A stretch of 64,000 nucleotides of DNA from Oscillospiraceae bacterium (GCA_004557855.1 SFFJ01000007.1:1933-65932), one strand, 5' to 3'; counted from the first letter of the stretch, positions 13,862-60,831 are shown. Numbers and translations are program-made. The notes: generated by a model not told the origin, from the letters alone.

Positions 13862-14145
13862 TTTCATCACACCCGCCCCCGACAGAACCCAGTTTTCTGC
13901 CGGGGGCGCTGCTGTTTTACCCCCTGCAAGCCGCAAGCCCACCGCCCGCAGGGCCGGCGGCCTCCGGCCGCCGTCGGCGGGGCTCCGCCCCGCCGGCCCC
14001 GCCCCCTGCGGGGGGCGGGGCGCCCTGCGGGCGGCTCTCCCTCCCCGCAAGCCTGCGGCCCTGCGGCGGCCTCCGGCCGCCCTCTCCCCGCACCCGCCCC
14101 AAAGCGCCCGCCCCGCCCTCCAAAAAGAAAAAATGTTCGCACCGC

Positions 14146-16201: not shown

Positions 16202-16532
16202 TCCGCCGCCCCCTGCAGGATCTGGGATGGGCACCCGCAGGGCAGCCCACCTCTGGTGGGCTCGGCGGCCTCCGGCCGCCGGTTTCGGCTTCGCCGAAAC
16301 GCCCTGCGGGCGCCCCTTTTTCCGCAGGCCCGCCCTCTGCACCCCCACCACCCCCGCCCCCTGCATGATATGGGGCGGCGGCGCGCAAATCGGCGTCGGC
16401 TGCGTCAAGGTCCCTTGCCAGGCATCAGTCCGATTTCATCGGACAAGAGCCTGCCGGCGGCCCCTTTCCTTGCCCCCATCCGATTTTCCCACCACCGCCC
16501 CCGCAAGCCGCACATAATACAGTCCGTATAAA

Positions 16533-18797: not shown

Positions 18798-19335
18798 CCA
18801 TTCTCCTTTCTGCCGAGGCCGGGTGGGCCCCGCAGTCCGGCGCCTGCGGCGCCGGCGGCCGGGCTTCGCCCGGCCTCGGCCCGCCCTGCGGGCGGGCCCC
18901 TGCGGGGCCCCGACCCGCACCCCCGCACCCGCCCCGCCCTCGCCCAAGCATTCCCCCGCACCATCCGGTCCCACCATAAAGCCCCCGCACCCACGCCCCG
19001 CAGGGGGCCCGCTGCGCGGGCTCCGGCGGGCTGCGCCCGCCCGCCGCCTGCGGCGGCGCCCCTGCGGGGCTCCCCACAAAACCGCCCCCTGCACATTCTC
19101 CGCCCCCTGCATAAACCCCGCCCCGGCCGCCCATACTACCGCCGAGAGTTTCCCGGAGGGCGTTTGCACAGGCCGGGCAGTTCTCACGCCCGGTCGGGAT
19201 GAAACGCCATGCGCTTTTTCTCTTCCGGGTCTTTTTTTGCCCAAAAAGGGCTTGCATCTTCGGTCGGTTTGTGGTATCATTTTGTAGTCGAATGATGCCC
19301 TGTACCGGACAGGGCGCAATTATGGAGGTAAAAAG

Positions 19336-20580: not shown

Positions 20581-20918
20581 CCGCAGGGCTACCGGCTTGC
20601 CGATGCTTTCGGCAGGCCGGCTATTTGTATGTTATCCCTTGTGCAGGGGGCGGGATACGGCCCGCAGGGCGGCCCGCCCCTCCGGGGCGGGCCGGGCGGG
20701 GCTCCGCCCCGCCCTCGGCGGCTTCGCCGCCGGCCCTGCGGGCCCCTGCCCCCCGCCAGTCCTCCCCAACCCAACCCCGCACAACCCCCCCGGTCCGCCC
20801 GGCGGGCCACCGCCTGCGGCGGCGTAGGGGGCGGCCTGCGGCCGCCCCCAGCCCCGGCTGCGCCGGGGCCGCCCGCCGGGCGCCCCATCCAATCCCCACC
20901 CCGAAAGGAGACCACCCC

Positions 20919-26484: not shown

Positions 26485-27453
26485 TTATTGCAGCGCTTCG
26501 GGGATGGTGATGCCGAGGTCGGCGGCCACCTGCTCATTGATGACGAGGGAGAGGTTGCTGACGTCAAAGAAGAAGATGGGGGTGGTGGCGGGGTCGGCGC
26601 CGTTGACGAGGATATTGAAGGCCTGCTCGCCGGCTGCACGACCCAGCTCGTAGTAGCTGATGGCATAGGTGGCAAGGAAGCCGCTGTCACACATCCCGCC
26701 CTCGCCGCAGATCACGGGCTTGCCGGCCGCGGTGGTGATGTTGCTCATGGTGGGGACATTGGAGGCGATGAGGTTATCGGTCGGCTCATAGAAGGCGTCC
26801 ACCTCATTGCAGGCGGCGGTCACCACGGTCTGGATCTCATTGGTATCGGCAACGGTGTAGATCTTGACGGAGAAGCCGGCGGCTTCAAAAGCGGTCTTGG
26901 CTTCCTCTGCCTGGATGGCAGAGTTTTCCTCGCCGGAATTGATCACGATGCCGACCGTCTTGACGGTGGGGCAGAGGGTCTTCATCAGGTCGACCTGTAC
27001 ATTGACGGGGTTCATATCGGAGGCGCCGGTCACATTGGCGCCGGGGGCCTCATTGCTGGCGACCAGCCCGCTGGAAACATAATCGGTAACGCTGGTGCCG
27101 ACGATCGGGATATCGGAGGTAGCCTCACGGGCGGCCTTTACGGCATTGGTGGCGTTCGCCATGATGAGGTCGACCTTGGCAGCAACAAACTGGTTGACGA
27201 TGGTGGTGCAGTTGGTCTGCTCACCCTGTGCATTCTGCACGCTGAACTGTACCCGGTCCCCCAGCTTTTCGGTGAGGAACTCTTGGAAGCCGCGGGTGGC
27301 TTCATCCAGGGCAGGGTGCTCTACCAGCTGGCATATGCCAATCTGGAATACCTTTTCATCGGGGTTGACGGGGGTGGGCTCATTGCCGCAGGCAGCAAAG
27401 CCGGCGACCATCAAACAGGCGGCAGCAGCCGCAAAAAACTTTTTGCATTTCAT
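26485..27453 (-). CDS. ABC transporter substrate-binding lipoprotein (ABC_sub_bind / COG2984-type)
   Basis: Lipoprotein signal MKCKKFFAAAAACLMVAGFAAC-GNEP. RBS AAGGAGA. The track N-terminal extension (MARPAAG...) lies in the T-box leader and is not coding. Confidence 0.75.
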   Translation of the reverse strand: MKCKKFFAAAAACLMVAGFAACGNEPTPVNPDEKVFQIGICQLVEHPALDEATRGFQEFLTEKLGDRVQFSVQNAQGEQTNCTTIVNQFVAAKVDLIMANATNAVKAAREATSDIPIVGTSVTDYVSSGLVASNEAPGANVTGASDMNPVNVQVDLMKTLCPTVKTVGIVINSGEENSAIQAEEAKTAFEAAGFSVKIYTVADTNEIQTVVTAACNEVDAFYEPTDNLIASNVPTMSNITTAAGKPVICGEGGMCDSGFLATYAISYYELGRAAGEQAFNILVNGADPATTPIFFFDVSNLSLVINEQVAADLGITIPEALQ

Positions 27454-27544
27454 GGTATTTCTCCTTATCTTGAATGGGTTGATTTTTTTATCTATCTGCA
27501 CCCCTGCGGCCGGCCGTGCCATAAGGGGAACATTCGGGAAAACA

Positions 27545-27800
27545 AAAAAGCCCTGTCTTTCCGGACTTCTCTCCGGAAAAAACAGGGGCGATAAAGGCTA
27601 TCGCGGTACCACTCTGCTTCGGGCCTCTCTTGCGGGAAGGCCCCTCATTGGGCAGCTGTCACTGTCCGCACGATGTAACGGTCGAACCCGGCGCAGCCTA
27701 CTCTCACGGGGGAGGTGTTCGGTGCGCGGCTACCGAAAGGTACTTCATCCGTCCTACTCATCATTGCCTTGCAGCATCCGGCAACTCTCTGCAGATTTTG
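27545..27800 (-). promoter_or_regulatory. T-box riboswitch leader with terminator/antiterminator, upstream of the ABC transporter operon
   Basis: The minus-strand RNA contains GCAGAGAGU (GA/K-turn motif), the conserved T-box sequence AGAGUGGUACCGCGAUAGCC (plus 27596-27615) and an intrinsic terminator CCCUGU-UUUUUCCGGAGAGAAGUCCGGAAAG-ACAGGGCUUUUUUG (plus ~27556-27600). A candidate promoter TTGACT-17-TAAAGT lies on the minus strand near 27845-27875. Confidence 0.7.
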
Positions 27801-28183
27801 GGGCGGGTTACTTTTTTCCGGTCATCGCCTGTCATTTATGATGGTTGTACTTTAGCACTTTTATGCGGCAAAGTCAACAGCTTTTTTAAAGTTTTTTTGC
27901 GTTTTGGCATAGTGGGGGGATTTTCGGCAGGCGGCAGGCCGGTTTTGGGTAGAACGCACAAATTCCGGTGCAAAATCCGGGCGCCGGCAGGGGGCCGGTT
28001 GCATTACGGCAGCAAAGCGGGTACAATAGTGACAGACCGCTGCAAGCCGCAGGTGAGGGGGCCCCGCCCCCTGCGCCCGCAGGGCGCAGTCCCCGCCTTC
28101 GGCGGGGCGGCCCGGCTCCGCCGGGCCGGGCGGGGCCCCGCATCCCGCCGCCTGCACGCAGCCAAACAGGAAGGAGAAAACCG

Positions 28184-29505: not shown

Positions 29506-29865
29506 CCAAGTGAATACATCACACCCCCGCCTCGGCAGCAATACCGGGGCGGGGCTTTTGCTGCCCGGGCGGGGCGCTTTCCGCAAGCCCGTGCAGCAGT
29601 ACGGCCCGCAGGGCCGGCCGCCTGCGGCGGCCGTAGGGGGCGGCCGGAGGCCGCCCCCAAGCCCGTCCTGCGGACGGGCTGCCCTGCGGGCCCGCCCCCG
29701 CACAGCAGCCTGCATATCGCAGCCCCCGCTCCGACGTCCCCCACACCCCCATTTAGGAACCCCACATACCCCCGCCCCGGCCCGCACCCCCCGGATTTGT
29801 GCGGTATAGATAAAATAGACCGCCTTTTTTGGGAGGTTTTATCCCCCGAAGCCCTTGCAACCCAA

Positions 29866-34610: not shown

Positions 34611-34833
34611 AAAAAGCACCCCGCAGGGGTGCTTTTTCGGCAGGCCGCGCAGTGGCCCGGGCCCCGCGGCGGAGCCGCCGCCGGGCTTCGCCCGGCGACC
34701 CCGAGCCTTCGGCTCGGGTCCCCCGTCCCTGCGGGACGGGGGGCGGCTCCGCCGCATACCGGGCCCCTGCGGGGCCCGAAAAGGGGCGCCCGGCCGGGCG
34801 CCCCTTCATCGCTTATCCCGGTTGCCGCCCTTA

Positions 34834-35343: not shown

Positions 35344-35662
35344 CGTCTGTACCTCCGGGTTGGGTGTGTGCGCCGCCCGAACCGCCCGCAGGGCGTTCCG
35401 GCTCCGCCGGAACTCGGCGGCTCCGCCGCCGGGCCCGCCTTCGGCGGGCCGCCCTGCGGGCGGCTGTGCGGCGTAGGGATAGCCTGCGGCCTTTTTGCTG
35501 TCGCTATTGTAGCACGTTGCGGGGCGCCAGTCAAACCCGGACAAAAAATAATTTCGGGCAGACAAATCCGCAAAAAGGGATAGCCAACCGCCCCGAAATC
35601 TGCTATACTATATGGGAAAATTGCAAACCGAGAATTTGCAGAAGAATAAGGAGTGTATTACC

Positions 35663-44216: not shown

Positions 44217-44442
44217 ATAAAACCGGGTCTGTACCATGCACAGACCCGGCTTTTTTGCATCTTTCCAGTCTCCCAAAAGGGCAGGGCACCGGCGGGCCGG
44301 CCCCCGGCCTCCGGCCGGGGATGCCGCGCGCCCCCTGCGGGGGCGCGCGGCTGGGCGCCTGCGGCGCCCGCCGGCCCGCCGGCGCTGCACCACCCGCAGC
44401 CCCATCTCCTCAATAAAAACAGAGTAGGGCAGGGGAGGGGGG

Positions 44443-45288
44443 TCACCACTCCAGCAGCTGCCGCAAAGCGTGAGCCACACCGTCCTCCTCGTTGGTCAGC
44501 GTCACCCGGTCGGCAGCCTGCTGCACGGCAGCATCGGCGTTGCCCATCGCCACCCCTATCCCGGCAGCCTCCAGCATCCCGATGTCATTATCGGCATCCC
44601 CAAAGGCCACCGCCTGCGCCATAGGGACCTGCAGCGTCCGGCACAGCGCCGCCAGCGCCGCCCCTTTGCTGCCCTCCCGGTCGGTCAGCTCCAGATTGCA
44701 GGGCATGGTGCTGACGGCCCGTACCCGGTCGCCGTAACGCTCGGCCAGCCACGCCTTGACCTCCGCTTTCTGCTCCGGCGTCAGGCAGGGCAGATTGATC
44801 TTCTCCAAATGGCTCCCGGGGCGTTTTGCCCGTTCCGCCAGGCTCTCCACAATGCTCTCCCCGTCCGAAAACAGCGCTTTCAGGTGAAAAACCGGCAGAT
44901 GGAACACATCCCGCATTTCCCAGTGGGCGCGGGAGATATACATTTTCTGGTCGGCATAAAGCTGAATGGCAAACCCGCCCATCCCGGTCAAATGCGCCAA
45001 AATCTCCAGCGTAACATCGACCGGCAGCGGCGCCGCCCGCAAAACATTCCCCTCCCGGTCGGTGGTCAAGCTGCCGTTGCAGGTGATGAAATACCGCAAA
45101 AAGGGCAGCTCCAGTACCTGCGGCGCTATCGCAGCGATGCTCCGTCCCGTCGCCACCACCACCTCGATGCCCTCGTCAGCGGCACGGGTCAGCGCCTCCC
45201 GGTTCTTCGGGGAAAGGGTAATATGATCCTGCCGCAGCAGGGTGCCGTCCAGGTCCACGGCGATCAGCTTGATTTTCCGGTTTGCCAT
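44443..45288 (-). CDS. Cof-type HAD-IIB phosphatase
   Basis: N-terminus MANRKIKLIAVDLDGTLL (DxD HAD motif) and C-terminal GDADNDIGM. The track ORF extension to 45810 runs through repeat DNA. Confidence 0.8.
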   Translation of the reverse strand: MANRKIKLIAVDLDGTLLRQDHITLSPKNREALTRAADEGIEVVVATGRSIAAIAPQVLELPFLRYFITCNGSLTTDREGNVLRAAPLPVDVTLEILAHLTGMGGFAIQLYADQKMYISRAHWEMRDVFHLPVFHLKALFSDGESIVESLAERAKRPGSHLEKINLPCLTPEQKAEVKAWLAERYGDRVRAVSTMPCNLELTDREGSKGAALAALCRTLQVPMAQAVAFGDADNDIGMLEAAGIGVAMGNADAAVQQAADRVTLTNEEDGVAHALRQLLEW

Positions 45289-45385
45289 AGCGGCTCCTTT
45301 CCGGGTTGTATTTGCGGGGATAAATAACGTGTATCGGTGCCCCGCCGCACCGGCCGTCCTCTCGGTTTTGCATCGGCGCCGCACC

Positions 45386-45495
45386 CCCCCTGCAAACCGC
45401 AGGCATCGGGCGCAGCCCAACCGCCCTCCGGGCGGTTTCAGCGGCCTGCGGCCGCTTCGGCGGCGCTGCCGCGCCGCCCGGGCTGCGCCCGCAGC
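45386..45495. repeat. GC-rich ~105-bp dispersed repeat (CCCCTGCAAACCGCAG... family), copy A
   Basis: cccctgcaaaccgcaggcatcgggcgcagcccaaccgccctccgggcggtttcagcggcctgcggccgcttcggcggcgctgccgcgccgcccgggctgcgcccgcagc. It contains nested hairpins (aaccgccc-tcc-gggcggtt, gcggcc-tgc-ggccgc). Confidence 0.7.
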
Positions 45496-45659
45496 GCCCC
45501 TTGCAGCTCCCTGCAAAAAACGCACCGCATCCCGCCGCCCATACGGCCCGCCGAGCGCCCCGGCTTCGCCGGGGCCTGCCCGCTGCGCGTGCAGCACCCG
45601 CCCTCCGGGCGGGCGGCCCTGCGGGCCCCTTGCAGGAACCCGCCAAACCACCGGCAGCC

Positions 45660-45805
45660 CCCCTGCAAACCGCAGGCATCGGGCGCAGCCCAACCGCCCT
45701 CCGGGCGGTTTCAGCGGCCTGCGGCCGCTTCGGCGGCGCTTCCGCGCCGCCCGGCTTGCGGCCGCTTCGGCGGCGCTGCCGCGCCGCCCAGGCTGCGCCC
45801 GCAGC
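45660..45805. repeat. same repeat family, copy B (with an internal 32-bp duplication), 274 bp after copy A
   Basis: Near-identical to copy A over ~100 bp. The extra unit is gcggccgcttcggcggcgctgccgcgccgccc. Confidence 0.7.
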
Positions 45806-45830
45806 ACCAAACCTCACCGCTCCGCCCGCC

Positions 45831-46817
45831 TTACTTCCGCCTTTTCGGCTTGCGGTACCGCTCGGTGATCTCCTCCACCGTGGTGGGCTTCACCGTCAGC
45901 AGCTCCTCCACAAACGGTGCCAGTACCGGCGCCCAGTCGATGCCCTTCCCCTCCAGCAGCCCGGCCATATCACCGGGCAGCGGCGCGGTAAGGCACAGCT
46001 GTTCCCCGGTGATGGGATGGGTAAAAGCTACCCCCGCGCAGTGCAGCGCCTGCCGGGAAAATTCCTCCATCGGCCCGCCGTACAGCTCATCGCCCAGCAG
46101 CGGCCAGCCCTTCTCCGCCATGTGTACCCGTATCTGGTGGGTACGCCCGGTGTGCAGGATGAACCCCACCAAAGCACAGCTGCAATCCGGGGCGGCGGCC
46201 AGGACCCGGTATTCGGTCACAGCCCGTTCCCCCTCCGGGGAAACAATGCGTTTCATCTCCAGCGGAACCTCCCGCTCCAGCGGCAGGTCTATCAGCCCCT
46301 CGGCGGGCTGCGGGATGCCCTTCACCACCGCCACATACCGCTTGGTCACAGCCTTCCACAGCTTGCCTGCGGCGATTTGGTGGCGAGCCACTACCACAGC
46401 GCCGGTGGTGTCCTTGTCGATGCGGTTCACCGCCCGGAAGGTGCCGGCGGCCCCCTCCTTTTCGCACAGGGTGGCATAAACGCTTGCCAGCGTCCCGAAA
46501 ATGTGTCCCCCCGATTGATGCACCGGCATCCCGGCAGGCTTGTTAAATACAGCAACATCCCGGTCCCAGTACAGCCGCGGCACATCGATTTCACAGGGCG
46601 GCAGCTTTCTTACCTGCTCCGGCAGGTTGATCTCCAGAAGATCTCCCTCCCGCAGCAGGTCAACGGTGCGGGCGTGCTGCCCGTTTCGCAGTATGCCCTC
46701 CGGCAGATGCTTGAGGGAGATAACGACCTTGCGGCTGATGCCCTGCTTGAACCGCAGAAAATGCTGGATCTCGTCCCCCGCGTCCTCGGCAGTAATGGTA
46801 TAGCGAAAGGTGGTCAT
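45831..46817 (-). CDS. RluA-family 23S rRNA pseudouridine synthase
   Basis: Catalytic motif NRIDKDTTGAVVVA (HRLDxxTSG variant) and a C-terminal basic tail. Confidence 0.8.
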   Translation of the reverse strand: MTTFRYTITAEDAGDEIQHFLRFKQGISRKVVISLKHLPEGILRNGQHARTVDLLREGDLLEINLPEQVRKLPPCEIDVPRLYWDRDVAVFNKPAGMPVHQSGGHIFGTLASVYATLCEKEGAAGTFRAVNRIDKDTTGAVVVARHQIAAGKLWKAVTKRYVAVVKGIPQPAEGLIDLPLEREVPLEMKRIVSPEGERAVTEYRVLAAAPDCSCALVGFILHTGRTHQIRVHMAEKGWPLLGDELYGGPMEEFSRQALHCAGVAFTHPITGEQLCLTAPLPGDMAGLLEGKGIDWAPVLAPFVEELLTVKPTTVEEITERYRKPKRRK

Positions 46818-46936
46818 GGCTTCTCCTCCTCAATCATTTTGTGCACCCGCAGGCATCGGCCGCCCCGTGCCGCCTCCGGTGGCTTGCCGGGAGCCCCCTG
46901 CGGGGGCTCCCGCCCGGCGCTCCGCGCCGCCGGGGC

Positions 46937-47460
46937 GGCCCTCACTCTCGGCAGCCCCGCCATATCCGGCAGCCCCGCCCCTTGCAACGGCCCGCAGGGC
47001 GCTCCGGCTCTGCCGGAGCCTGCGCGCTCCGCGCGCAGCGCCCGCCCGCAGGGCGTCCCGGCCCTGCGGGCCTCTCTGCTCCTCGCAGTAACCCCGTACA
47101 GCACCCCCGCCCCGCCGCAAACTTGCAGCCCTCTCACAAAGCCCTGCAAACCGCAGCCACCGGGCGCCGCCCAACCGCCCTCGGGCGGTTTAAGCGGCCG
47201 CAGGCCGCTTCGGCGGCCCTCACTCTCGGCAGCCCCGCCATATCCGGCAGCCCCGCCCCTTGCAACGGCCCGCAGGGCGCTCTGGCTCTGCCGGAGCCTG
47301 CGCGCTCCGCGCGCAGCGCCCGCCCTCCGGGCGGGCGGCCCTGCGGGCCTCTCTGCTCCTCGCAGCAACCCCGCACAGCACCCCCGCCCCGCCGCAAACT
47401 TGCAGCTCTCTTACAAAGCCCTGCAAACCGCAGCCACCGGGCGCCGCCGGGGCTGCGCCC
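46937..47460. repeat. ~278-bp tandem duplication (2 copies) of GC-rich intergenic sequence, each ending in a copy of the CCCTGCAAACCGCAG element
   Basis: ggccctcactctcggcagccccgccatatccggcagccccgccccttgcaacggcccgcagggcgct... recurs at 46937 and 47215. The second unit carries a small internal deletion. Confidence 0.7.
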
Positions 47461-47601
47461 CTTTCAAAAGCGCCCGACCGGGCATCCTGCCCCGCCGCCT
47501 CTCCCGGGCAGCCCGCCTCGCCTGTTCCACAATACCGAATTGTACCACAAACCCGCCGCAAAGGAAAGACCCCGGCCGCCGCCGGGGTCAAAAACCCGTT
47601 T

Positions 47602-48510
47602 TCACGCCACGCCGAGGTACTCCTCCAGCGTCAGCCCGTTCTGCATAATGTAGGTCGCGATCTCCACCCCCACATACCGGAAGTGCCACGGCTCAAATAT
47701 GATGCCGGTCACATCCTGCTTGTCCTTGGGGTACCGCAGGATAAACCCGTACTCGGCGCAGTGCGCCTTCATCCAGGCCGCCTCGGCGTCGTACTCAAAG
47801 GACTCCTCGATCTGACTGTGATGGTTGTAGTAGTCCCCGGAAAGGATATCCACCGCCAGTCCGGTGTTGTGCTCACTCGTTCCGGGAGGCGCCACGCGGG
47901 TGGCCGCCACCTGCTCCGCCTTTTCCCGGCTGTACCCGTTATACTTCATCTGCGCCTGCACCTCGTTTTCCAGCAGTACGGCGCTGCGCGCAAAGGTGCG
48001 GTAGCCGCTGATGACCTGCAGGGTGTAGCCGTCCGCCTTGGCCGCCGCCAAAAAGTCCTTCAGCGGCTGCGCGATGCGTGCGTCTACCGGCCACCCCACC
48101 GTCTCACGCTCCATCTCCATCTCCTCGGCCAGCGGGTACTTGGCGCTTACCAGGATGGTGCGCCAGTCGTCGCTGCCGGGGTTGGTCAGTCCGGTGTTGC
48201 CCGGCTCGGGGCTCGGATCGGGCTTGGGCTTCGGCTTCGGTTCGGTCACCGGGTCAGGATCGGTCACCGGGTCAGGATCGGTCACCGGGTCAGGATCAGT
48301 TGCGGGGTCCGGCTCCGGCAAACCGCCGGGCTGCTCGGTCTGCTGCCCTGCGTTGGGGTCAGGGGTGGGGTCGGGCTTCCCGGCTCCCCGCCGGATGAGC
48401 GCCGTCACGCCCCACACGATCAGCCCCACCACCAGCAGGATCAGGATCACACCCCGCACCCGCTTAAAGGTGCGGCGGCGCTGCGCTTCGGAATGTTTAT
48501 TCTGGCTCAT
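47602..48510 (-). CDS. D-alanyl-D-alanine carboxypeptidase (VanY / peptidase M15B family) with a repetitive DPDPVT linker
   Basis: N-terminal TM anchor. The linker repeat is encoded by an 18-bp x3 tandem DNA repeat at ~48236-48300. The catalytic region contains SEHNTGLAVD, placed in the M15 family. Confidence 0.75.
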   Translation of the reverse strand: MSQNKHSEAQRRRTFKRVRGVILILLVVGLIVWGVTALIRRGAGKPDPTPDPNAGQQTEQPGGLPEPDPATDPDPVTDPDPVTDPDPVTEPKPKPKPDPSPEPGNTGLTNPGSDDWRTILVSAKYPLAEEMEMERETVGWPVDARIAQPLKDFLAAAKADGYTLQVISGYRTFARSAVLLENEVQAQMKYNGYSREKAEQVAATRVAPPGTSEHNTGLAVDILSGDYYNHHSQIEESFEYDAEAAWMKAHCAEYGFILRYPKDKQDVTGIIFEPWHFRYVGVEIATYIMQNGLTLEEYLGVA

Positions 48511-48706
48511 GGTTTTTCCTCCGTTGGATATTTGGTCTCTGCAAGGTGCCGGTACGGCCGCAGGCCATGATGCTCCGCATCATCGCCGCCCCCCGCAGGG
48601 GGGCGACGGCCCGGGCTTCGCCCGGGCGGCCTGCGGCCGCCCGCCCACCAGCAGCTTTTTGTTTCCTATTATATAGTGCCGTCCCGATGCCGATTTGCTG
48701 CACCGG

Positions 48707-49651
48707 TCAGCCCTTTTGCATCAGCAGGGCGCACCAGCCCTCCTGCTCCCGGTCCCCGGCCACCGTCAGCCCCTCGGCCTCCAGCGCCGCAATGACCTCC
48801 TCCCGGCGGGGCAGGATGATACCGGAAGCCACCAGATGCCCGCCCGGCTTGAGATGCCGGGCGATCGCCGGCGCCAGCGCAATAATTACATCCGCCACAA
48901 TGTTCGCCAGTACAATGTCAAACCCGCCGCGGGTCAGCTCCTCCCCCAGCGGTTGATGCACCAGGTCGGCGGTCACAGCGGTAAACCGGTCGGCTCCAAA
49001 GCCGTTCTCTGCGGCGTTCTCGGCGGCAGTGCGTACCGCCACCCTGTCAATGTCCACCCCAACGGCCTCCTCGGCGCCCAGCATCAGCGCCGCAATGGAA
49101 AGGATGCCGCTGCCGGTACCCATATCCAGTACCCGCGCGCCCTCCACCGGCAAATGCTCCAGCAGCTCGCAGCACAGGCGGGTGGTGTGGTGGGTGCCGC
49201 TGCCGAATGCCATCCCGGGGTCCAGCGTCATCACAAGCTCCTGCGGGGCAGGGGCGTATTGCTCCCAGCTGGGGCAAACCACCAGCCGTTCCCCCAGGTG
49301 CGTGGGGTGATAAAACCGCTTCCACGCATTGGCCCAGTCCTCCTCGGCCAGCGTTTGGTCGGTCTCCATGCGGTAGGGGATGCCCTCGGCCTCCAGCCGG
49401 CGGGTCAAAAAGTCTGCGGCCTCTGCCGGGTTCTCATCGGGGGGCAGGTACAGGTGCAAAATCGCCTCGGTGCGGCTGCGGGCCAGCAGCTCCTCGTCGA
49501 TCAGGTCAATGTGCGCGATCTGCGGCACCAGCTCCAGCATATCGCTGTAATCCTCAATATAAATGCCGTAGGGGACGGCCATCTGCGCAATGGCCTCGGC
49601 GGTCTCGGCGTCCTTGGTGCTTACGGTGATCTTCAGGTCAGTCCAGTTCAT
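48707..49651 (-). CDS. prmA: ribosomal protein L11 methyltransferase
   Basis: SAM-binding motif LDMGTGSGILSIAAL. 314 aa. Confidence 0.85.
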   Translation of the reverse strand: MNWTDLKITVSTKDAETAEAIAQMAVPYGIYIEDYSDMLELVPQIAHIDLIDEELLARSRTEAILHLYLPPDENPAEAADFLTRRLEAEGIPYRMETDQTLAEEDWANAWKRFYHPTHLGERLVVCPSWEQYAPAPQELVMTLDPGMAFGSGTHHTTRLCCELLEHLPVEGARVLDMGTGSGILSIAALMLGAEEAVGVDIDRVAVRTAAENAAENGFGADRFTAVTADLVHQPLGEELTRGGFDIVLANIVADVIIALAPAIARHLKPGGHLVASGIILPRREEVIAALEAEGLTVAGDREQEGWCALLMQKG

Positions 49652-49791
49652 GGCGGTTCCTTTCTTATCGGTTTTCTGCCTCTATTATAGCGGCAGCCGC
49701 AAAAAAACTCAACTGTTTCCGCCCTCTTTTTGCATAGCGGCGGCATAGCGGCCCATACTGCCTGCATAAAGATGGCAAAGGAGGCAACATC

Positions 49792-50016
49792 ATGACAGAA
49801 ACCAACCGTGCCGGGGGACAGCAGGAAACGCTGTGGGAGGAACTCAATCGGGTCAATAATGAGCTCCGCCGCGCGGAGGAGCTTTTTAATGCGGTGACGG
49901 AGGATGCGCTGATCGATGCCTGTACCTATCGCATCCAAACGCTGACGGCCTACCGCGCCTATCTCTTGCGGGTGGCGCGTCAGCAGGGGCAGCAGCCCGC
50001 ACCCGTCACCCTGTAA
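49792..50016 (+). CDS. small YaaL-like protein (DUF2508-like)
   Basis: 74 aa helical protein immediately upstream of a BofA-like gene, mirroring B. subtilis yaaL-bofA. Confidence 0.45.
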   Translation: MTETNRAGGQQETLWEELNRVNNELRRAEELFNAVTEDALIDACTYRIQTLTAYRAYLLRVARQQGQQPAPVTL

Positions 50017-50033
50017 AATACAAGGAGGACATC

Positions 50034-50261
50034 ATGGAGGTCTGGCTTATTCTGGGGGCGGCAGCCCTGCTTACGCTGCTGGTACGGTGGCGGCACGCCC
50101 TGCGGGGCTGGCTGCTTTCCGCCGCCGGGGGATTGGCAGTGCTGCTCTCGGTGGGTGCGGCGGGCGCCCTGCTCCCCGTCAACCTGTTCACCGTAGCAAC
50201 CTGCACCCTTTTGGGCCTGCCGGGCGCCGTCAGTCTGCTGGTGTGCAACCTGCTGTGGTAG
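50034..50261 (+). CDS. bofA: BofA-family sigma-K processing regulatory protein
   Basis: 75 aa with two TM segments. LPVNLFTVATCTLLGLPGAVSLLV resembles the BofA C-terminal region (VPINLVTTAISGILGIPGIAALVV, recalled from memory). Confidence 0.55.
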   Translation: MEVWLILGAAALLTLLVRWRHALRGWLLSAAGGLAVLLSVGAAGALLPVNLFTVATCTLLGLPGAVSLLVCNLLW

Positions 50262-50481
50262 CCCCTGCAAACCGCAAAATACGGCCGCAGTCCCGCCCGG
50301 GCTTCGCCCGGGCTCGCCGCCCCCTGCGGGGGCGGCGCCGATGCTCCGCATCGGGGGCCTGCGGCCGTCCCGCACCCCCGCACCCCCGCAGACCGCCCCG
50401 CACCCTTCGCATCCCTGCCGCCCCAAAAGAAAAATGCCACCCGCTTTCCCACGGACGACACTTTTCTTTCGGGGCGCCGGC

Positions 50482-50937
50482 TTACAGCACCCTTCCGCCG
50501 ATTAAGTAATCCTCCACCACCTCAAGCAGTTGGCAGGGGTCCAGCTCACCCTGCTGCATCATCGCAGCTAACGCCTTGGCCTGCACGGCGCTGTCGGTCA
50601 CATCGGATACAGCCTGTAGCTGCAGCCATCCGTCGCCGGAAAGAAGCTGCTCGCACAGGATCCCGTAGGAGCAGTAGCGCCCTAATACAGGGTCAGTATG
50701 CCATTCTTCGCAGGCACGGTAACGGATGACCGGATTCTCGGTTTCAGTTACTCTTTCCTGGTTGCACAAGGGTAGGGTTCCTCCTCTTTTAGACTTCAGG
50801 CCGGCCCCTGTACTCTCCACACAGGTAAATCGGCCCATGTAGATTTTACCACATCTTCCACTATGTGGCATAACAAATAATCCCCCGTTCTCCTCATCAT
50901 CCTGCCAATTTCCTGTCGAATTAGGTCGAAATCTCAT
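50482..50937 (-). CDS. hypothetical Cys-rich protein
   Basis: Proposed start MRFRPN at 50937 after RBS AAAGAGGGA. The 5' half is lower-GC. No family recognised. Confidence 0.35.
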   Translation of the reverse strand: MRFRPNSTGNWQDDEENGGLFVMPHSGRCGKIYMGRFTCVESTGAGLKSKRGGTLPLCNQERVTETENPVIRYRACEEWHTDPVLGRYCSYGILCEQLLSGDGWLQLQAVSDVTDSAVQAKALAAMMQQGELDPCQLLEVVEDYLIGGRVL

Positions 50938-51096
50938 AAGATCCCTCTTTCCCGCGTTAATATTCCGTCCAGATTCGCTGCTTTTCACAAAACTGCCCCC
51001 GTTCTTTTGGCACACGATTTCAAAAAAATTCGCTCTTATCGTTTCAATCCCCATTCCCGCCGCCCCGCTTCGCCAATATTTCCCTATCCCGGCCGC

Positions 51097-51178
51097 AGCA
51101 AACCGCAGCCGTAGGGCGCAGCCCAAACCGCCCTGCGGGCGGTTTTCAGCGGCGCTGCCGCGCCGCCGGGGCTGCCCC
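51097..51178. repeat. same GC-rich repeat family, copy D (shorter)
   Basis: gcaaaccgcagccgtagggcgcagcccaaaccgccctgcgggcggttttcagcggcgctgccgcgccgccggggctgcccc. Confidence 0.65.
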
Positions 51179-51258
51179 CTGCGTCCCCCAAAAAGCCGCA
51201 AAAAAACACCGGCCCGGCCCCATACGGGCGCCCGGCCGGCATCCTCGGCAGCGTCAGG

Positions 51259-51377
51259 TTAGTCGCAGCGATTTTCAGCCTCCGGCTTTTCGCTGCGGTT
51301 CTCGCCCTGCTTCTGCTGGCTGTTCCGACTCTCGTTCCGATTGTCGTTTTTGGCATTGTTCTGGGAATTTTTGCTCA
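51259..51377 (-). CDS. possible 39-aa hydrophilic small protein (MSKNSQNNAKNDNRNESRNSQQKQGENRSEKPEAENRCD)
   Basis: Below the track's size cutoff. A GTG start follows a strong RBS AAAGGAGGTG on the minus strand. Composition resembles minor small acid-soluble spore proteins. Purely sequence-based. Confidence 0.3.
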
Positions 51378-51650
51378 CGGTTTTCACCTCCTTTTCAGGG
51401 AATAGTATGCGCATGCCGCAGCCCCCTTATACCAAAGAATAGGGAAGACCTGCCGCCCGGCAAAATCCCGCCCGCCCCATTTCATTCCGGTAAATAGGGA
51501 AGACCCCCGCAATCCCCGCTGTCTTGCGAAATTCCCCACCCGCAAAGCCCCGTTTTCGATCTCCTCCCCGCCGGCTTCGACTGTAAAAAACCCCGCAAAA
51601 CATCTCGAAAAATTCTCCGCAAAAAATCCCTAAAAATTTTCGGTTTGTGC

Positions 51651-51702
51651 TTGACAATTCCCAAATGCGTGCTATAATGAAATTACAAAAATGATAATCA
51701 TT
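51651..51702 (+). promoter_or_regulatory. promoter of the reverse-rubrerythrin gene with an overlapping Fur/PerR-type box
   Basis: TTGACA at 51651-51656, TATAAT at 51673-51678. Immediately downstream is AATGATAATCATT (51690-51702), a perfect 6-1-6 palindrome matching the core of the Fur-box consensus GATAATGATAATCATTATC. Confidence 0.45.
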
Positions 51703-51723
51703 ACTGAAAAGGAGATTTTCACT

Positions 51724-52269
51724 ATGGCTAAATATGTTTGCACTGTCTGCGGTTATGTCCATGAGGGCGACTCTGCCCCCGAATTCTGCCCCGTCTGCAA
51801 GGCGCCCGCCTCCAAGTTCAAAAAGGTAGAGGGCGAAATGGCTTGGGCCGCCGAGCATGTAGTCGGTGTTGCGCAGGGCTGCGACCCCGAGATCCTGCAG
51901 GGCCTGCGTGATAACTTCAACGGCGAGTGCTGCGAGGTCGGTATGTATCTGGCCATGGCCCGCGTTGCCCACCGTGAGGGCTATCCCGAGATCGGCCTGT
52001 ACTGGGAGAAGGCCGCATGGGAGGAGGCCGAGCACGCCGCCAAGTTTGCGGAGCTGCTGGGCGAGGTCGTCACCGACTCCACCAAGAAGAACCTGGAGAT
52101 GCGTGTAGAAGCCGAAAACGGCGCTACCATGGGCAAGACCGAGTTGGCCAAGAAGGCCAAGGCGCTCAACCTCGATGCCATCCACGATACCGTGCATGAA
52201 ATGGCCCGCGACGAAGCCCGCCACGGCAAAGCCTTTGCCGGCCTGCTGTCCCGCTATTTCGGCAAATAA
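51724..52269 (+). CDS. reverse rubrerythrin (N-terminal rubredoxin-like domain plus diiron ferritin-like domain)
   Basis: CTVCGY...CPVCK at the N-terminus followed by E..H diiron motifs ([24 protein letters not shown]). RBS AAAAGGAGA. Confidence 0.8.
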
Positions 52270-52377
52270 TCAAACCGCAAATTTAGAGAGAATGTAGAAA
52301 GTCCCCGGCGTAAAACCGGGGGCTTTTTGCATCCCCCATTCCCGCATTTTTCGGGGAGCTGTTTTCCCGCTGACCCG

Positions 52378-52486
52378 GCCCCCTGCAAACCGCAGCCATA
52401 GGGCGCAGCCCAAACCGCCCTGCGGGCGGTTTTCAGCGGCCTGCGGCCGCCGCGGCGGCGCTGCCGCGCCGCCGGGGCTGCGCCCC
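52378..52486. repeat. same GC-rich repeat family, copy E
   Basis: cccctgcaaaccgcagccatagggcgcagcccaaaccgccctgcgggcggttttcagcggcctgcggccgccgcggcggcgctgccgcgccgccggggctgcgcccc. Confidence 0.7.
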
Positions 52487-52556
52487 AAACCCATCCCTCC
52501 CCGCATCCCTCTATCCACCTGCAAAACACACCCTCCCCATCGCCTTCCTATCCCGG

Positions 52557-52686
52557 CCCCCTGCAAACCGCAGCCATAGGGCGCAGCCCAAACCGCCCTG
52601 CGGGCGGTTTTCAGCGGCCTGCGGCCGCTGCGGCGGCGCTGCCGCGCCGCCGGGGCTGCGCCCCAAGCTCGCCGGGGCTGCGCCCC
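52557..52686. repeat. same GC-rich repeat family, copy F
   Basis: Near-identical to copy E, with a short terminal duplication of gccggggctgcgcccc. Confidence 0.7.
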
Positions 52687-52936: not shown

Positions 52937-53863
52937 ATGTCCAGAATTGTTATCGCCCTCGGCGGCAACGCCCTCGGCAACACCCCCTATGAGCAGCTCG
53001 AGCTCGTGACCGAGACCGCAAAGCCCATCGTTGACCTCATCGAGGCCGGCAACGAAGTCATCATCGCCCACGGCAACGGCCCCCAGGTCGGCATGATCAA
53101 CCTCGCCATGAGCGCAGCCGCCGAAGCCGGCGCCGTTAAGAGCGATATGCCCTTCCCCGAGTGCGGCGCTATGTCCCAGGGTTATATCGGCTACCACCTG
53201 CAGAACGCCATCGGCAACGAGCTGGCCAAGCGCGGCATCAATAAGCCGGTAGCCACCATCGTTACCCAGGTCCTCGTCGATGAGAACGACGGCGCTTTCC
53301 AGAAGCCCACCAAGCCCATCGGCGCCTTCTACACCAAGGAGCAGGCCGATGAGATCGCCGCCACCAAGGGCTTTACCATGGTAGAGGATGCCGGCCGCGG
53401 CTATCGCCGTGTCGTTCCGTCCCCCAAGCCCGTTGACGTTGTCGAGAAGGACGTTGTAGAGGCCGTTGTCGATTCCGGCGCCGTAGTCATCACCGTAGGC
53501 GGCGGCGGTATCCCCGTTATCAAAAAGGACGGCAAGCTGGTAGGCGTTCCCGCCGTTATCGATAAGGACTTCGCCTCCTCCAAGATTGCCGAGCTGCTGC
53601 ACGCCGATGCCCTGTTCATCCTCACCGCCGTTGATCGTGTTGCCATCAATTGGGGCAAGCCCGACCAGAAGAGCCTCGAGGAGATGAGCATCGCCGAGGC
53701 CGAGAAGTACATCGGTGAAAACCAGTTCGCTCCCGGCTCCATGCTGCCCAAGGTTCAGGCTGCCATCGCCTTTGCCCAGTCCGGCGGCCGTGCCATCATC
53801 GCCGACCTGCACAATGCAGCGCTGGCCCTGGAAGGCAAATCCGGCACCGCCATCCACAAATAA
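52937..53863 (+). CDS. arcC: carbamate kinase
   Basis: MSRIVIALGGNALG and HGNGPQVG motifs. 308 aa. Confidence 0.85.
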   Translation: MSRIVIALGGNALGNTPYEQLELVTETAKPIVDLIEAGNEVIIAHGNGPQVGMINLAMSAAAEAGAVKSDMPFPECGAMSQGYIGYHLQNAIGNELAKRGINKPVATIVTQVLVDENDGAFQKPTKPIGAFYTKEQADEIAATKGFTMVEDAGRGYRRVVPSPKPVDVVEKDVVEAVVDSGAVVITVGGGGIPVIKKDGKLVGVPAVIDKDFASSKIAELLHADALFILTAVDRVAINWGKPDQKSLEEMSIAEAEKYIGENQFAPGSMLPKVQAAIAFAQSGGRAIIADLHNAALALEGKSGTAIHK

Positions 53864-54261
53864 TCCCCACCCGCCCTTCCGGCGCCCGCCCGCATCCCGC
53901 GGCCGGGCGCCTTTTGCATCCCCCGGCACCCTTTCACCCCCCGCCGGTTGCCTGCCGCTTCCACTCCGCCGCCCTGCACACACCTGCTACCGGCACCGCC
54001 ATCCACAAATAATCCCCACCCGCCCTTCCGGCGCCCGCCCGCATCCGCGGCCGGGCGCCTTTTGCATCCCCCGGCACCCTTTTCCCCCCGCCGGTTGCCT
54101 GCCGCCTGCTTTTGTGGTAGAATATCTGCAAACCGCACCGTCGGGGGCGCGCGGCCGGGCTCCGCCCGGCCTGCGGGGGCGGCCTGCGGCCGCCCCCGTC
54201 CCCCGTGCCTGCGGCACGGGGGCGCGCCCCCGCCCTACCCCCTGCATAAAGGAGACTTCCC

Positions 54262-57249: not shown

Positions 57250-57696
57250 GGTAGTAACCTCCCTTAAAATGTTGGGGTACGGTTGGGGGAGAACGGTTCC
57301 GGCCGTTCTCTGCTAATTTCATTATAGCACACCCGTCGTGAGGTGAAAAGCCCCTTTTTACGGACTTTGTCCCGTCCCGCCCCCGTAAAACGCCGGAAAC
57401 CCCGCCCTTCCCGCCTGTTTTTCCGTGCAGGCCGCAGGCTTTCCCCCCGCAGCGGATACGGGCCGCAGGCCGCCCCGGCTTCGCCGGGGCCGGCGGGCTC
57501 CGCCCGCCGAAGCCGTCCTGCGGACGGCTTGGCCTGCGGCCCTCCGCCCCCCGCACAGGCCCCCCGAAAGCCGCAAACCCAGCCCCCGCAGCCCCGCACA
57601 AACTCCCCCCAAAGCCGCAAGCCCGTGATTTTACCGCAAAACCAAACCGCCCGTTCTTCCCCTAAATCAAGAAAAAAAAGAAAGAAAAACCGTGAT

Positions 57697-58371
57697 TTAC
57701 GGCCATTCCTCCGTCGGTACCAGCAGGGTGATCACCGCAGCCCTTTTCCGGTCGAAATCCAAAAGCCCCTCCCGCCGCAGGCCGCCCAGCACCCGCGAAA
57801 GGGCGCTGCGGTCCGCCCCCAAATAGTAGGCCAGCCCCTCCCGGTCAAACGGCAGCCGCACGGTAGAACTGCCCTGCGCCCGGCTTTCCATCTGTAAATA
57901 GTACTGCAAACGTTCCCGCAGGGTGGGCTGCGAAAGGCAGATCAGCCGCCGCTGCAGCGAAAAATACGCCCCGGAAAGCTGCTTGGAAAGATTGCCCAAA
58001 AGCCGCGAAAATGCAGGCCCCGTGCCGTTAAACAGCTGCTTCGTCGGGATCCACAGGATGCGGCAGGGGGCGCAGGCCATCACCGTTACAGGGCTTTCCC
58101 GGTCGCCGTCCAGCGCCAAAAGCTGCCCGAAAAGCTCCCCGCGGGTCAGGCGGCTTTGCAGCAGCTGGCGGCCCTGCGGCAGCGGCAAAATGGCGTATAA
58201 AACGCCCTCCAGTACCAGCCCCATGCGCACGGTGGAGCACCCGGCAGCCAACACGATCTGCCCGGGCTGATAGGCTTGCTCGACGGCCTGCAGGCGGGCA
58301 AGCTCCCCGGCGATCTCGGCTTCCGTCAGACCCTCGAAGAGGGGGCAGAGGGGATATTTTTTCTCCGGCAT
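57697..58371 (-). CDS. Crp/Fnr-family transcriptional regulator
   Basis: N-terminal cNMP-binding-like domain and a C-terminal HTH (RERLQYYL...GADRSALSRVLGGLRREGLL). RBS GGGAGA before ATG 58371. Confidence 0.75.
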   Translation of the reverse strand: MPEKKYPLCPLFEGLTEAEIAGELARLQAVEQAYQPGQIVLAAGCSTVRMGLVLEGVLYAILPLPQGRQLLQSRLTRGELFGQLLALDGDRESPVTVMACAPCRILWIPTKQLFNGTGPAFSRLLGNLSKQLSGAYFSLQRRLICLSQPTLRERLQYYLQMESRAQGSSTVRLPFDREGLAYYLGADRSALSRVLGGLRREGLLDFDRKRAAVITLLVPTEEWP

Positions 58372-58500
58372 GATGTGGTTTTCTCCCTTCATTTTGTTGC
58401 GGATGCAACATACTTTTCCCCTTGAATATACTATAATATGACCGAAAGTGCAAGTAAACCCGCAAATATGCGATAAAACCCATAAGCAAAGGAGAACACA

Positions 58501-59055
58501 ATGTCTAAAACCATAAGCAATTCTAATGGCAGCACCGGCCTGAAAACGCTCTGCCGCACCGCCATCTTCCTGGCGCTGCTCATCGCGGTGCAGTTCGTCA
58601 CCCGTTCCATGGGGCAGTATGTCACCGGCTCCCTCGTCAACCTCGTGCTCATCGCCGCCGCCCTGATGTGCGGTCTGTGGGGCGGGCTGGCGGTTGCGGT
58701 GCTGTCCCCGTTCTGCGCCTTCCTCATCGGCATCGGCCCCGCTTTTCCGCAAATCGTCCCGGCGGTGGCGCTGGGAAATGCCGTATTGGTGGTGCTTTGG
58801 TCGCTGCTCGCCGGCAAAAAGGACGCTGCCGTGGGGCGGTATCTGTGCGCCCTTGCGGTGGCGGCTGTCGCCAAATTTTTGACCCTTTACCTTGTCATCG
58901 TCAAGTGGCTGGTGCCGATGGTGCTGACCCTGAACGAGAAGCAGACCGCGGTGCTTTCGGCCAGTTTTTCCTTCCCGCAGCTGATAACGGCGGCGGTGGG
59001 CGGTGTGCTGGCGGTGCTGCTGGTGCCGCCGCTGCGCCGCGCCCTGAAGGTGTGA
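58501..59055 (+). CDS. ECF-transporter S component-like membrane protein (second copy)
   Basis: 184 aa with six TM helices. A promoter with -10 TATAAT lies upstream. Confidence 0.5.
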   Translation: MSKTISNSNGSTGLKTLCRTAIFLALLIAVQFVTRSMGQYVTGSLVNLVLIAAALMCGLWGGLAVAVLSPFCAFLIGIGPAFPQIVPAVALGNAVLVVLWSLLAGKKDAAVGRYLCALAVAAVAKFLTLYLVIVKWLVPMVLTLNEKQTAVLSASFSFPQLITAAVGGVLAVLLVPPLRRALKV

Positions 59056-59381
59056 TTTTCGCCTGATTTCTCCGATATTTTCGACATTCTTCCCCATGGG
59101 GCCCGCCTGCCGGCGGGCCCTTTTGGGTGCGGGGCCGGCACCCGGTACAGGCCGGGACCCGAACGGGGGAGGGGCGGCCCGCAGGGCGTTTCGGCGCAGC
59201 CGAAACCGGCGGCCGGAGGCCGCCGAGGCGCCGGAGGCGCCTGCCCTGCGGGCCGGATGCCCGGGGCTTGCAGGGGGTGCGGGCAGGGCGGCCCCGCCCC
59301 GGAAATTTTCCCGCCGGAGCGCTTTTCTTTTGGCGGGAAGTGCGCTATACTAAAAGCAGAAGCCAAAAGGAGGTTTTTCTT

Positions 59382-60323: not shown

Positions 60324-60831
60324 ACGGTGCCTGTGACGGCGGCTTCGCCGGGGTGATTTCGGCGGGGCGGCGCTTTCGCTGATCTGCGGAGGGTAATGGG
60401 GGAGTGGCTCTGTTGCCGATCCGCGGAGTGTGGCGTTGCCCTTTTTGCAGGTTTTCAAAACGGGAGGGGGCGCAGCCCCCGCCGCCCGCGGCGGCGGGGA
60501 GCCCGTGCCGCAGGCACGGGCGAGGCGGCGAAGCCGCCGAGCTGCGCCCTCGGTTTTGCACCTTTATCAAAGCATGGGAGTGTGGGGCGGGCGCACTGCA
60601 GCGGGGAGGGCTGCCCGCAGGGTCAGCACGACCGGAGCGGAGGCGCGCCCGCGCATTTTGCGGGGAAACGGGCGGGTGCAGGACATGGCCGGGGGGATGG
60701 TACAGTCTGCAAGAAATGTGAATAAGAGGTAAAATAACGGAAAATCGATTGATTTTTTTAGTGGGATGTTATAAAATAGTGGTAATGGACGGGGAACCGA
60801 CCGAAATACAACAACATCAGGAGGAACAATA

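Follow-up and report, generated by a model that had tools for sequence, protein, structure and literature searches.

Intergenic GC-Rich Repeats of an Angelakisella Lineage Belong to an Abundant Superfamily of Four-Way-Junction Modules

A 64,000-nt stretch of DNA from an Oscillospiraceae bacterium (GCA_004557855.1 SFFJ01000007.1:1933-65932), referred to here as the window and numbered from its first letter, carries a dense cluster of GC-rich repeats of about 105 bp between positions 45386 and 52686. An initial annotation, made from the sequence of the window, had described at least six near-identical copies and two truncated variants of this repeat, all intergenic and all containing nested perfect hairpins, and had likened them to repetitive extragenic palindromic (REP) sequences, bacterial interspersed mosaic elements (BIMEs) or MITEs (miniature transposable elements with inverted repeats). 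What kind of element is this, how far does it extend beyond the cluster, and does it operate as DNA or as RNA? The comparisons described below, in which loci from other genomes and metagenomes are denoted by L numbers, establish that these 105-bp elements form a single subfamily within a highly abundant superfamily of repeats whose members share a four-way junction (4WJ).

Module Architecture and Abundance

The unit of the superfamily, termed a module, is a GC-rich segment of ~84 nt whose outer stem closes a 4WJ of three perfect hairpins of 7-10 bp. Folding of 4WJ copies of the 105-bp subfamily places three hairpins, joined by linkers of 0-3 nt, inside the outer stem; this 4WJ is both the minimum-energy and the centroid structure on either strand and accounts for 53-81% of the ensemble (DNA parameters; z scores of -5.9 to -9.5). 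The nested hairpins noted initially are thus present, the enclosing outer stem GGGCGCAGCC(C)/(G)GGCTGCGCCC having been missed. Other GC-rich spacers of the window fold into a 4WJ too, with stem sequences that are unrelated. A strict finder (perfect stems, outer stem of at least 7 bp, inner stems of at least 5 bp, linkers of at most 3 nt, two to five inner hairpins allowed) located 21 modules in the window, 20 of them with three inner hairpins, one with two and none with four or five. The same finder returned no module from 46 unrelated high-GC loci (L021-L066; ~760 kb of control DNA) and 0-1 module per locus from related Angelakisella species. A covariance model built from 16 diverse modules (CM R1) matched 25 window sites at E<=0.1, and five further modules were recovered by the strict finder only. 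The window total of ~30 modules, most with unrelated stem sequences and all but one lying between genes, corresponds to ~4% of the 64-kb DNA, and the 105-bp copies, real in themselves, are one sequence subfamily within this set. When CM R1 was run over 917 kb of other loci, matches were confined to Angelakisella relatives.

The properties of the modules were determined on 85 distinct three-hairpin examples from the window and the other loci gathered. These measure 83.6 +/- 4.8 nt, with inner stems of 8 bp as the mode, outer stems of mostly 11-13 bp and linkers mostly of 0 nt; the outer-stem arms are perfect inverted repeats ranging from 9 to 16 bp. A C-G pair closes the loop in 253 of 255 hairpins, and the loops conform to TGC/TCC/TTC or GCA/GGA/GAA (TNC/GNA) in 213 of 255. 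In 61 of the 85 modules the 5′ arm of the outer stem is a GCA-centred mini-palindrome, and three outer stems, GCGCAGCCC, CCGCAGGCC and CCGCAGGGC, dominate (60/85). Recurrent hairpin "words" hold to fixed positions (middle versus flanking), from which it follows that the modules form one diverged superfamily and not a set of random hairpins. Many modules are preceded by a head, CTGCAARCCGCAG or TGCAGCAGCCGGGAAY, and followed by a C-rich tail in which TTGCAG or CTGCA occurs; in some subfamilies a short polar leader, the head hairpin CTGCAARCCGCAG, and a C-rich tail are thus added to the module. Covariation is extensive: among 112 distinct matches (36 pairs, 3957 cells), 98.0% of cells are standard pairs versus 68% for shuffled sequences and ~41% with the partners slid, and 30 of the 36 pairs show changes on both sides.

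The 105-bp Subfamily

The repeats of the 45-54 kb region occur far above chance. Their head, CTGCAAACCGCAG, is found exactly at 45390, 45663, 47144, 47421, 52383 and 52561 and with one mismatch at 50265, 51096 and 54126, always on the plus strand; with up to two mismatches, 21 matches were counted in the window versus 2.7 expected. At 51114, 52401 and 52579 the core contains one and the same 39-mer, GGGCGCAGCCCAAACCGCCCTGCGGGCGGTTTTCAGCGG, with 0 expected. In the typical copy, a 13-nt head hairpin (CTGC-AAACC-GCAG) precedes a module of ~85 nt, in which an outer stem of 11-13 bp (GGGCGCAGCCC/GGGCTGCGCCC) closes the junction holding three perfect hairpins. Every copy sits between Pfam-supported genes, on the minus strand those for a HAD hydrolase (44443-45288), an RluD-like protein (45831-46817), VanY (47602-48510), PrmA (48707-49651) and DUF6514, and on the plus strand those for DUF2508, BofA, rubrerythrin and carbamate kinase. 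The intergenic position of all copies, claimed from the outset, is therefore borne out.

All copies lie on the plus strand. Copy A (45381-45500) consists of the head hairpin at 45390-45402 and a 4WJ module at 45407-45491, the core of which strain L009 has lost through a deletion between direct repeats of CGCAG(C). It is followed by a degenerate module with imperfect stems (45545-45627; CM R1 41.6 bits, E 7e-5) and by copy B (45654-45808), in which a head is joined to a 4WJ at 45680-45802 that carries a 37-bp internal tandem duplication; the copy reported at 45660 is accordingly real and has this addition. Copies A and B, 273 bp apart, have ~125 nt in common and are 96% identical (45381/45654). 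Copy B is flanked by the direct repeat (CG)CCAAACC and is present in the window, L001, L003, L004, L005 and L010 and absent from L002 and L006-L009. The next interval, 46926-47481, is a 278-bp tandem duplication (46926-47203/47204-47481) found in this strain and L001 only; it contains two modules of the GGCCCGCAGGGC type (46989-47072 and 47267-47349) as well as 47142-47222 and 47420-47448, which had been listed as separate copies and are the two halves of a single element, copy C, split by the duplication.

The VanY-PrmA spacer holds a module at 48555-48639 with the outer stem CGGCCGCAGGCC and the loops TCC, GCA and TTC. At 50262-50368, where a truncated variant had been suspected, the head CTGCAAACCGCAA precedes a complete module (50281-50368, module G) that has unrelated stems and only its head in common with the subfamily; an ortholog in the related species L012 displays compensatory stem changes and changed loops. 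The element at 51097, taken for a near-identical copy, is copy D (51087-51180), a deletion derivative with two inner hairpins at a site occupied by two full copies in most other strains. Copy E (52378-52486; head plus 4WJ at 52401-52485; DNA fold z -5.9 on the plus and -6.7 on the minus strand) and copy F (52557-52664; head plus 4WJ at 52579-52663), which varies in presence or absence between strains, are 99% identical (52374/52552), and indels separate A-type from E-type copies. Copies D and F have a common leader of ~40 nt (TTCCTATCCCGGCC...) despite the rubrerythrin gene between them. A head-like CTGCAAACCGCAC followed by a module with different stems (54142-54232) occupies 54126-54232.

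Variation between Strains and Species

Strains with identical PrmA differ in their spacers by whole or partial modules, the family being polymorphic between strains. Across strains the RluD-HAD spacer measures 299-542 bp and the VanY-RluD spacer 473-784 bp; in related species the corresponding spacers are 29-156 bp long, as compared with 540-780 bp here. Orthologous modules of different strains differ at 1.6% of inner-stem sites, 4.4% of flanking sites and 9.9% of loop sites. One and the same hairpin bears the loop TCC, GGA or GCA in different strains, and TGCG is replaced by GCAG in L141, both being loop inversions. The module of the ECF-S/ROK spacer is oriented oppositely to its flanks in L014 and L020 and is 91% identical there, the flanks being 71-81% identical; this amounts to a flip/flop-like inversion, and the inverted element is better conserved than the DNA around it. 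Direct repeats at filled sites, CCAAACC at copy B and CCGCAAA in the comparison of L014 with L015, show no consistency of length or position. Template switching at quasipalindromes, a process that perfects inverted repeats (PMC7202029), is expected to yield perfect arms, paired changes and inverted loops, and it may be operating here.

The one module that does not lie between genes is a CM match at 10584-10673 (plus strand), in frame within the coding sequence of tilS (9864-11243, plus strand, PF01171). The segment, which includes the widely conserved motif RQGLLALP.P..DRLLLRLLE, shows no length gain relative to TilS of G. kaustophilus and to homologues of 41-78% identity. Rickettsia palindromic elements (RPEs) can be inserted in frame into genes; an in-frame insertion of this type was ruled out for tilS by the alignment without length gain. 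The gene for a 77%-identical TilS of another species (L142, 813-908) forms this 4WJ too, its hairpin 1 being longer (12 bp) and a loop being flipped; TilS homologues of 45-48% identity do not form it, and an ancient fold was therefore rejected. In the variable part, codon pairs are mutually reverse-complementary (QGAA-A-GGTL). A native tilS coding segment has thus adopted the module fold in this lineage. The case argues for a lineage-specific force on structure, be it selection or templated palindromisation, for which transposition alone would be insufficient.

Distribution across Genomes

Synteny based on PrmA assigns the window to an Angelakisella species (Oscillospiraceae). PrmA is 85-91% identical to that of the nearest GTDB representatives and 68% identical to that of A. 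massiliensis, and an identical PrmA occurs on many human-gut metagenome contigs. The head plus outer stem of the 105-bp subfamily gave no match in 185,579 species representatives, a result that is uninformative on dispersal; as no GTDB representative has a PrmA above 91%, the species seemingly lacks a close genome there, or its repeats went unassembled in that genome. A metagenome scan for the outer-left arm plus hairpin 1 recovered 67 contigs; beyond the element itself, ~60 of them cannot be aligned to the window, and their flanks form several clusters. Four of the contigs in sample UEQL01, the one syntenic with the window and three belonging to other flank clusters, have coverages of 5.8, 5.8, 5.2 and 5.7. 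Given this agreement they apparently derive from one genome, in which the 105-bp subfamily is dispersed and apparently occupies at least three other sites. Its confinement to the present locus, the finding by which the initial annotation would have been overturned, is thereby excluded. Dispersed members show paired changes in hairpins 2 and 3, such as CTGCGGCC/GGCCGCAG versus CTGCGGAC/GTCCGCAG. Few or no modules are found in the close relatives A. massiliensis, L013, L015 and L017, and the modules are therefore dispensable for the genus.

One flank cluster (cluster 1; L068, L080, L112 and others, 53 contigs) represents a very common gut-metagenome locus with a close relative of the 105-bp subfamily and a lower module density of 1.2 per 10 kb, probably belonging to a different, more prevalent species. 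Its flank combinations vary between contigs, suggesting either several sites or chimeric assemblies at the repeat. A phage origin was considered and rejected: the commonest outer stem was found at module spacing in only two IMG/VR contigs, and these resemble ordinary module-bearing DNA.

Relation to Known Elements

By behaviour, the modules most resemble REP/BIME/REPIN elements and MITEs; by structure, they most resemble the telomere foldback of Streptomyces. Like the REP-type elements of Proteobacteria, which are mobilised by REP-associated tyrosine transposases (RAYTs), enzymes of the IS200/IS605-like Y1 HUH type whose genes REPs typically flank, they are extragenic, GC-rich, palindromic, high-copy, clustered in spacers and polymorphic between strains. 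REP-type elements are thought to act as single-stranded DNA and occasionally lie inside genes (PMC3733652, PMC2817692, PMC3116915). A REP, however, comprises a single imperfect stem-loop, 20-40 nt long and conserved in sequence, that terminates on one side in GTAG or CGTC (PMC3733652), whereas a module is an 84-nt 4WJ of four perfect helices with diverse sequences in a Clostridia/Oscillospiraceae host; modules generally lack the GTAG tag, and the DNA covered yielded no RAYT. The extragenic location, copy number and clustering of REPs are thus reproduced; their short tagged stem-loop is not. Exact GTAG is limited to D-type copies and CGTC to ~2 modules, and TA[CG] stands just 5′ of the outer stem in 13 of 49 modules versus 2 of 49 on the other side. 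With MITEs (Correia, RUP, BOX, ERIC, bcr1) and RPEs, the modules have in common that they are small non-autonomous spacer repeats with inverted termini. Repeats of this type vary in presence or absence and are at times found in frame inside genes (PMC3184786, PMC10969869; for RPEs, PMC3733652). The outer-stem arms of the modules do constitute terminal inverted repeats, as parts of the fold rather than as demonstrated transposase-binding ends. MITEs, in contrast, are defined by terminal inverted repeats of conserved sequence, by duplication of the target site and by a parent insertion sequence, none of them demonstrated for the modules, and the tilS case is not an insertion.

Structurally, an outer duplex enclosing small hairpins is also the arrangement of the Streptomyces foldback, the parvovirus rabbit ears and the inverted terminal repeats (ITRs) of adeno-associated virus. 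Parvoviruses undergo flip/flop inversion of their inner palindromes, which is paralleled by the inverted ortholog of the ECF-S/ROK module. In the archetypal Streptomyces telomere, Palindrome I pairs with part of Palindrome IV around two GCA-loop hairpins with sheared G:A pairs, and this foldback is bound by Tap and has been likened to the parvovirus rabbit ears (PMC4513846). Telomere and ITR structures are nevertheless terminal, number one per replicon end, enclose two inner hairpins in a three-way junction and are served by dedicated proteins, whereas the modules enclose three, are chromosome-internal and number tens of copies per 64 kb.

Integron attC sites are likewise recognised by structure rather than by sequence; a single DNA strand folds, and a conserved architecture goes together with diverse sequences. 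An attC site, however, consists of one imperfect hairpin that has extrahelical bases, and it forms arrays with gene cassettes beside intI, whereas the modules have housekeeping neighbours, no intI or cassette context and perfect helices. With intrinsic or hairpin-cluster terminators (PMC8355165), the modules share GC-rich hairpins downstream of genes; they differ in having no U/T tract, in being independent of orientation and in occurring in divergent spacers and coding sequence. The modules thus fail the definitions of REP/RAYT elements, intrinsic terminators, attC sites and Rfam families.

Possible Explanations

It has to be asked whether the fold is employed at the level of RNA. Modules transcribed within mRNAs could serve as terminators, attenuators or 3′-end protectors like the REP/BIME elements of E. 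coli, a proposal to which the intergenic position of nearly all of them, mostly between co-directional genes, and the extreme stability of the folds lend some weight, as do hairpin clusters, which are reported to terminate transcription (PMC8355165). It is nonetheless unlikely. No T-tract follows any module in 44-54.5 kb, where none of the 11 terminator-like sites coincides with a module and the genes have separate canonical terminators; the terminator role suggested initially is not supported. Modules also occupy divergent promoter-promoter spacers (5602, 28058) and the interior of tilS. Between 1 and 58 kb, T-N-C loops are found on the plus strand in 9 of 9 spacers between plus-strand genes and likewise on the plus strand in spacers between minus-strand genes (45407, 48555, 51118, 57460); two modules at 59-61 kb are reversed, although that at 59175 lies between plus-strand genes. 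Module orientation is independent of gene direction. Both strands fold equally, and G.U pairs are nearly absent (27 of 3957 paired cells versus 80 other non-pairs). A T-N-C loop on one strand corresponds to 5′-C(GNA)G-3′ on the complementary strand, and the d(GNA) triloop with a C:G closing pair is an unusually stable motif of DNA (PMC3201870, PMC13037366), the match being to a DNA-specific triloop (PMC3201870). Finally, an Rfam search of the whole window at gathering thresholds returned a T-box and tRNAs only, with no module match, and a search of 44-54.5 kb at E<=1 returned two chance miRNA matches only.

If DNA is the relevant species, the modules might be host-domesticated protein-binding or topological sites, occupied by a nucleoid, junction-specific or topoisomerase protein and serving chromosome organisation or replication. 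BIMEs bind gyrase and IHF. A role of this kind would agree with the strict conservation of architecture, loop motif and three recurring outer stems (60/85), with an orthologous module more conserved than its flanking genes, with the retention of the tilS module across species and with the binding of GCA-loop hairpins in a comparable foldback by Streptomyces Tap (PMC4513846). It appears improbable in view of the scarcity of modules in A. massiliensis, L013, L015 and L017 and of a copy number that varies by strain, and no candidate protein was identified. Could the modules then be a pure mutational by-product, arising because template switching, unusually frequent in this lineage, turns GC-rich DNA into palindromes wherever they are tolerated, in the absence of unit copying and function? 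Perfect stems, flipping loops and a native tilS coding sequence that became a 4WJ in this lineage only would all follow. The constancy of module size and of the hairpin number (three), the recurrence of outer stems, the position-fixed hairpin words, the near-identical copies with shared leaders at separate loci and the growth of spacers from ~30-150 bp to 540-780 bp would be left unexplained, and the probability of this account is accordingly small. Smaller by far is that of a merely local duplication or an assembly artefact: seven to eight copies of the 105-bp subfamily do lie within 8 kb, and tandem duplications of 37 bp and 278 bp do occur, but the subfamily is found at sites with unrelated flanks, and the locus with the same modules was recovered in >15 independent assemblies produced by different assemblers.

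The reading that we favour, with a probability of about 0.55, is that of a REP/MITE-like, structure-defined superfamily of 4WJ DNA repeats that has expanded in this Angelakisella lineage; the extragenic palindromic repeats, at ~30 modules per 64 kb, support the REP/BIME- or MITE-like character and the very high local density proposed at the outset. We infer that units of ~125-145 nt would be copied into nearby and distant intergenic DNA, ordinary tandem duplication contributing further modules, and that modules would be lost by slippage between short direct repeats. The relevant folded species would be single-stranded or extruded DNA in vivo, not RNA. Selection for folding, intrastrand template switching (quasipalindrome correction) or both may keep the stems perfectly complementary, and template switching would also account for loop flips and whole-module inversion. 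Any function for the host is hypothetical. Shared leaders, heads and tails and direct repeats agree with a copy-and-paste process but fall short of proof, since similar traces would be left by microhomology-mediated duplication and by slippage.

Several observations weigh against the preferred account. No transposase or other mobilising gene was found in the ~0.7 Mb of relevant genomes covered. For the RAYT/IS200 link suggested by the initial annotation, tblastn searches with IS200 and IS608 TnpA, which covered a small part of the genome, yielded nothing from the window or from the module-bearing contigs (~650 kb), the only matches lying in L018 (A. massiliensis, no modules) and the unrelated L056. 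A clean general target-site duplication is missing, and the three comparisons of filled with empty sites, involving CCAAACC, CGCAG and CCGCAAA, equally fit slippage. A complete 4WJ in the conserved tilS is hard to explain by insertion. Perfect palindromes fold as RNA too and may have a secondary effect at that level, the alignment used for the pair counts is model-fitted and includes both strands, and module orientation is only weakly linked with the direction of replication (rho -0.31, p 0.016), a link confounded by C-rich flanks and by the GC skew at third codon positions (GC3 skew) of the gene strand.

We would advance only tentatively the further proposal of an undescribed repeat class, defined by the DNA 4WJ fold rather than by sequence, in which a dedicated enzyme specific for junctions or hairpin loops, such as a recombinase or an HUH nuclease, would recognise the modules as single-stranded or extruded DNA and copy, invert and maintain them, and in which the force would be strong enough to impose the fold on a conserved coding segment of tilS. 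No description of such modules was found in the literature searched, the coverage of which is incomplete and leaves novelty unproven. If confirmed, the modules would add a new architecture, a 4WJ with GNA triloops of the DNA type, a conserved fold and drifting sequence, to the few bacterial interspersed repeats. They would likewise offer, in a common human-gut anaerobe, a natural system for work on template-switch mutagenesis, on the upkeep of palindromes, on hairpin and cruciform DNA in vivo and on structure-specific mobilisation. On the practical side, modules enlarge spacers five- to twenty-fold, cause spurious GC-rich open reading frames (ORFs) and strain-level indels, and probably break short-read assemblies of these genomes.

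Other Modules and Features of the Window

The modules outside the original cluster described in this paragraph lie on the plus strand. In the first third of the window they are found at 3928-4022; at 5602-5693, in the divergent spacer between an ECF sigma gene and gdpP; at 8390-8470, between rplI and dnaB; at 13942-14034, between ftsH and parE, where the head CTGCAAGCCGCAA stands 5′ of the module and the loop of the third hairpin (H3) is inverted in strain L141; at 16234-16310, between parE and parC; at 18825-19070, where the parC-secG spacer holds two (18825-18910 and 18995-19070); and at 20659-20882, where two slightly imperfect modules (20659-20744 and 20796-20882) lie upstream of an Fe-ADH gene. 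Further modules occupy 28058-28139, with CTGCAAGCCGCAG 5′ of the module, 29603-29692, 34666-34755, 35382-35463, the convergent spacer between the genes for 2-thiouracil desulfurase and HAD (44289-44382) and the DUF308-CRP spacer between minus-strand genes (57460-57542). The divergent spacer at 28058 adjoins a T-box leader (RF00230, 94.2 bits; 27581-27834, minus strand) upstream of a minus-strand gene (26485-27522), the module being placed just beyond it.

Two modules are assigned to the minus strand: that of the ECF-S/ROK spacer (59175-59255), with G-N-A loops on the plus strand and the inverted orthologs in L014 and L020 mentioned above, and that of a convergent spacer (60468-60549), with G-N-A-type loops on the plus strand. 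The GC skew of the plus strand changes from negative to strongly positive at ~59 kb, where the loop orientation of the modules flips too. No replication-origin genes were found at 58-59 kb, which holds CRP, ECF-S and ROK, and the switch may be a rearrangement breakpoint or a coincidence. The idea that the GNA strand is the lagging-strand template was abandoned: the correlation with the GC skew within +/-4 kb is weak, GC3 skew mainly follows the coding strand, and the essential plus-strand genes rplI, dnaB and ftsH lie in a region of negative skew.

As the initial annotation had recognised, the hairpin islands give rise to long spurious ORFs rich in Pro, Ala, Gly and Arg, for example at 45501-47648 (plus strand), 9921-10895 (minus strand) and 57697-59097 (minus strand). 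The public contigs L001-L010 contain gene calls with no Pfam match that overlap real genes and were probably misled by these islands. Repeats of other kinds are present as well. A 34-bp tandem repeat, CTAAAAAAGCGGTGTACCCTACCATGAGTGGGAG, runs for ~3.3 copies at 1034-1145, within a gene-poor stretch of 45% GC (522-2823) that adjoins two minus-strand tRNA genes (2558-2644 and 2676-2759) and could be the edge of an integrated element. Downstream of the carbamate kinase gene, a direct repeat with a period of 149 bp (53841-53940 and 53990-54089) carries in each copy a canonical-looking terminator hairpin followed by TTTT. Within the VanY gene, at ~48245-48300, an 18-bp in-frame tandem repeat, GGTCACCGGGTCAGGATC, is present in three copies, and VanY measures 296 or 302 amino acids depending on the strain.

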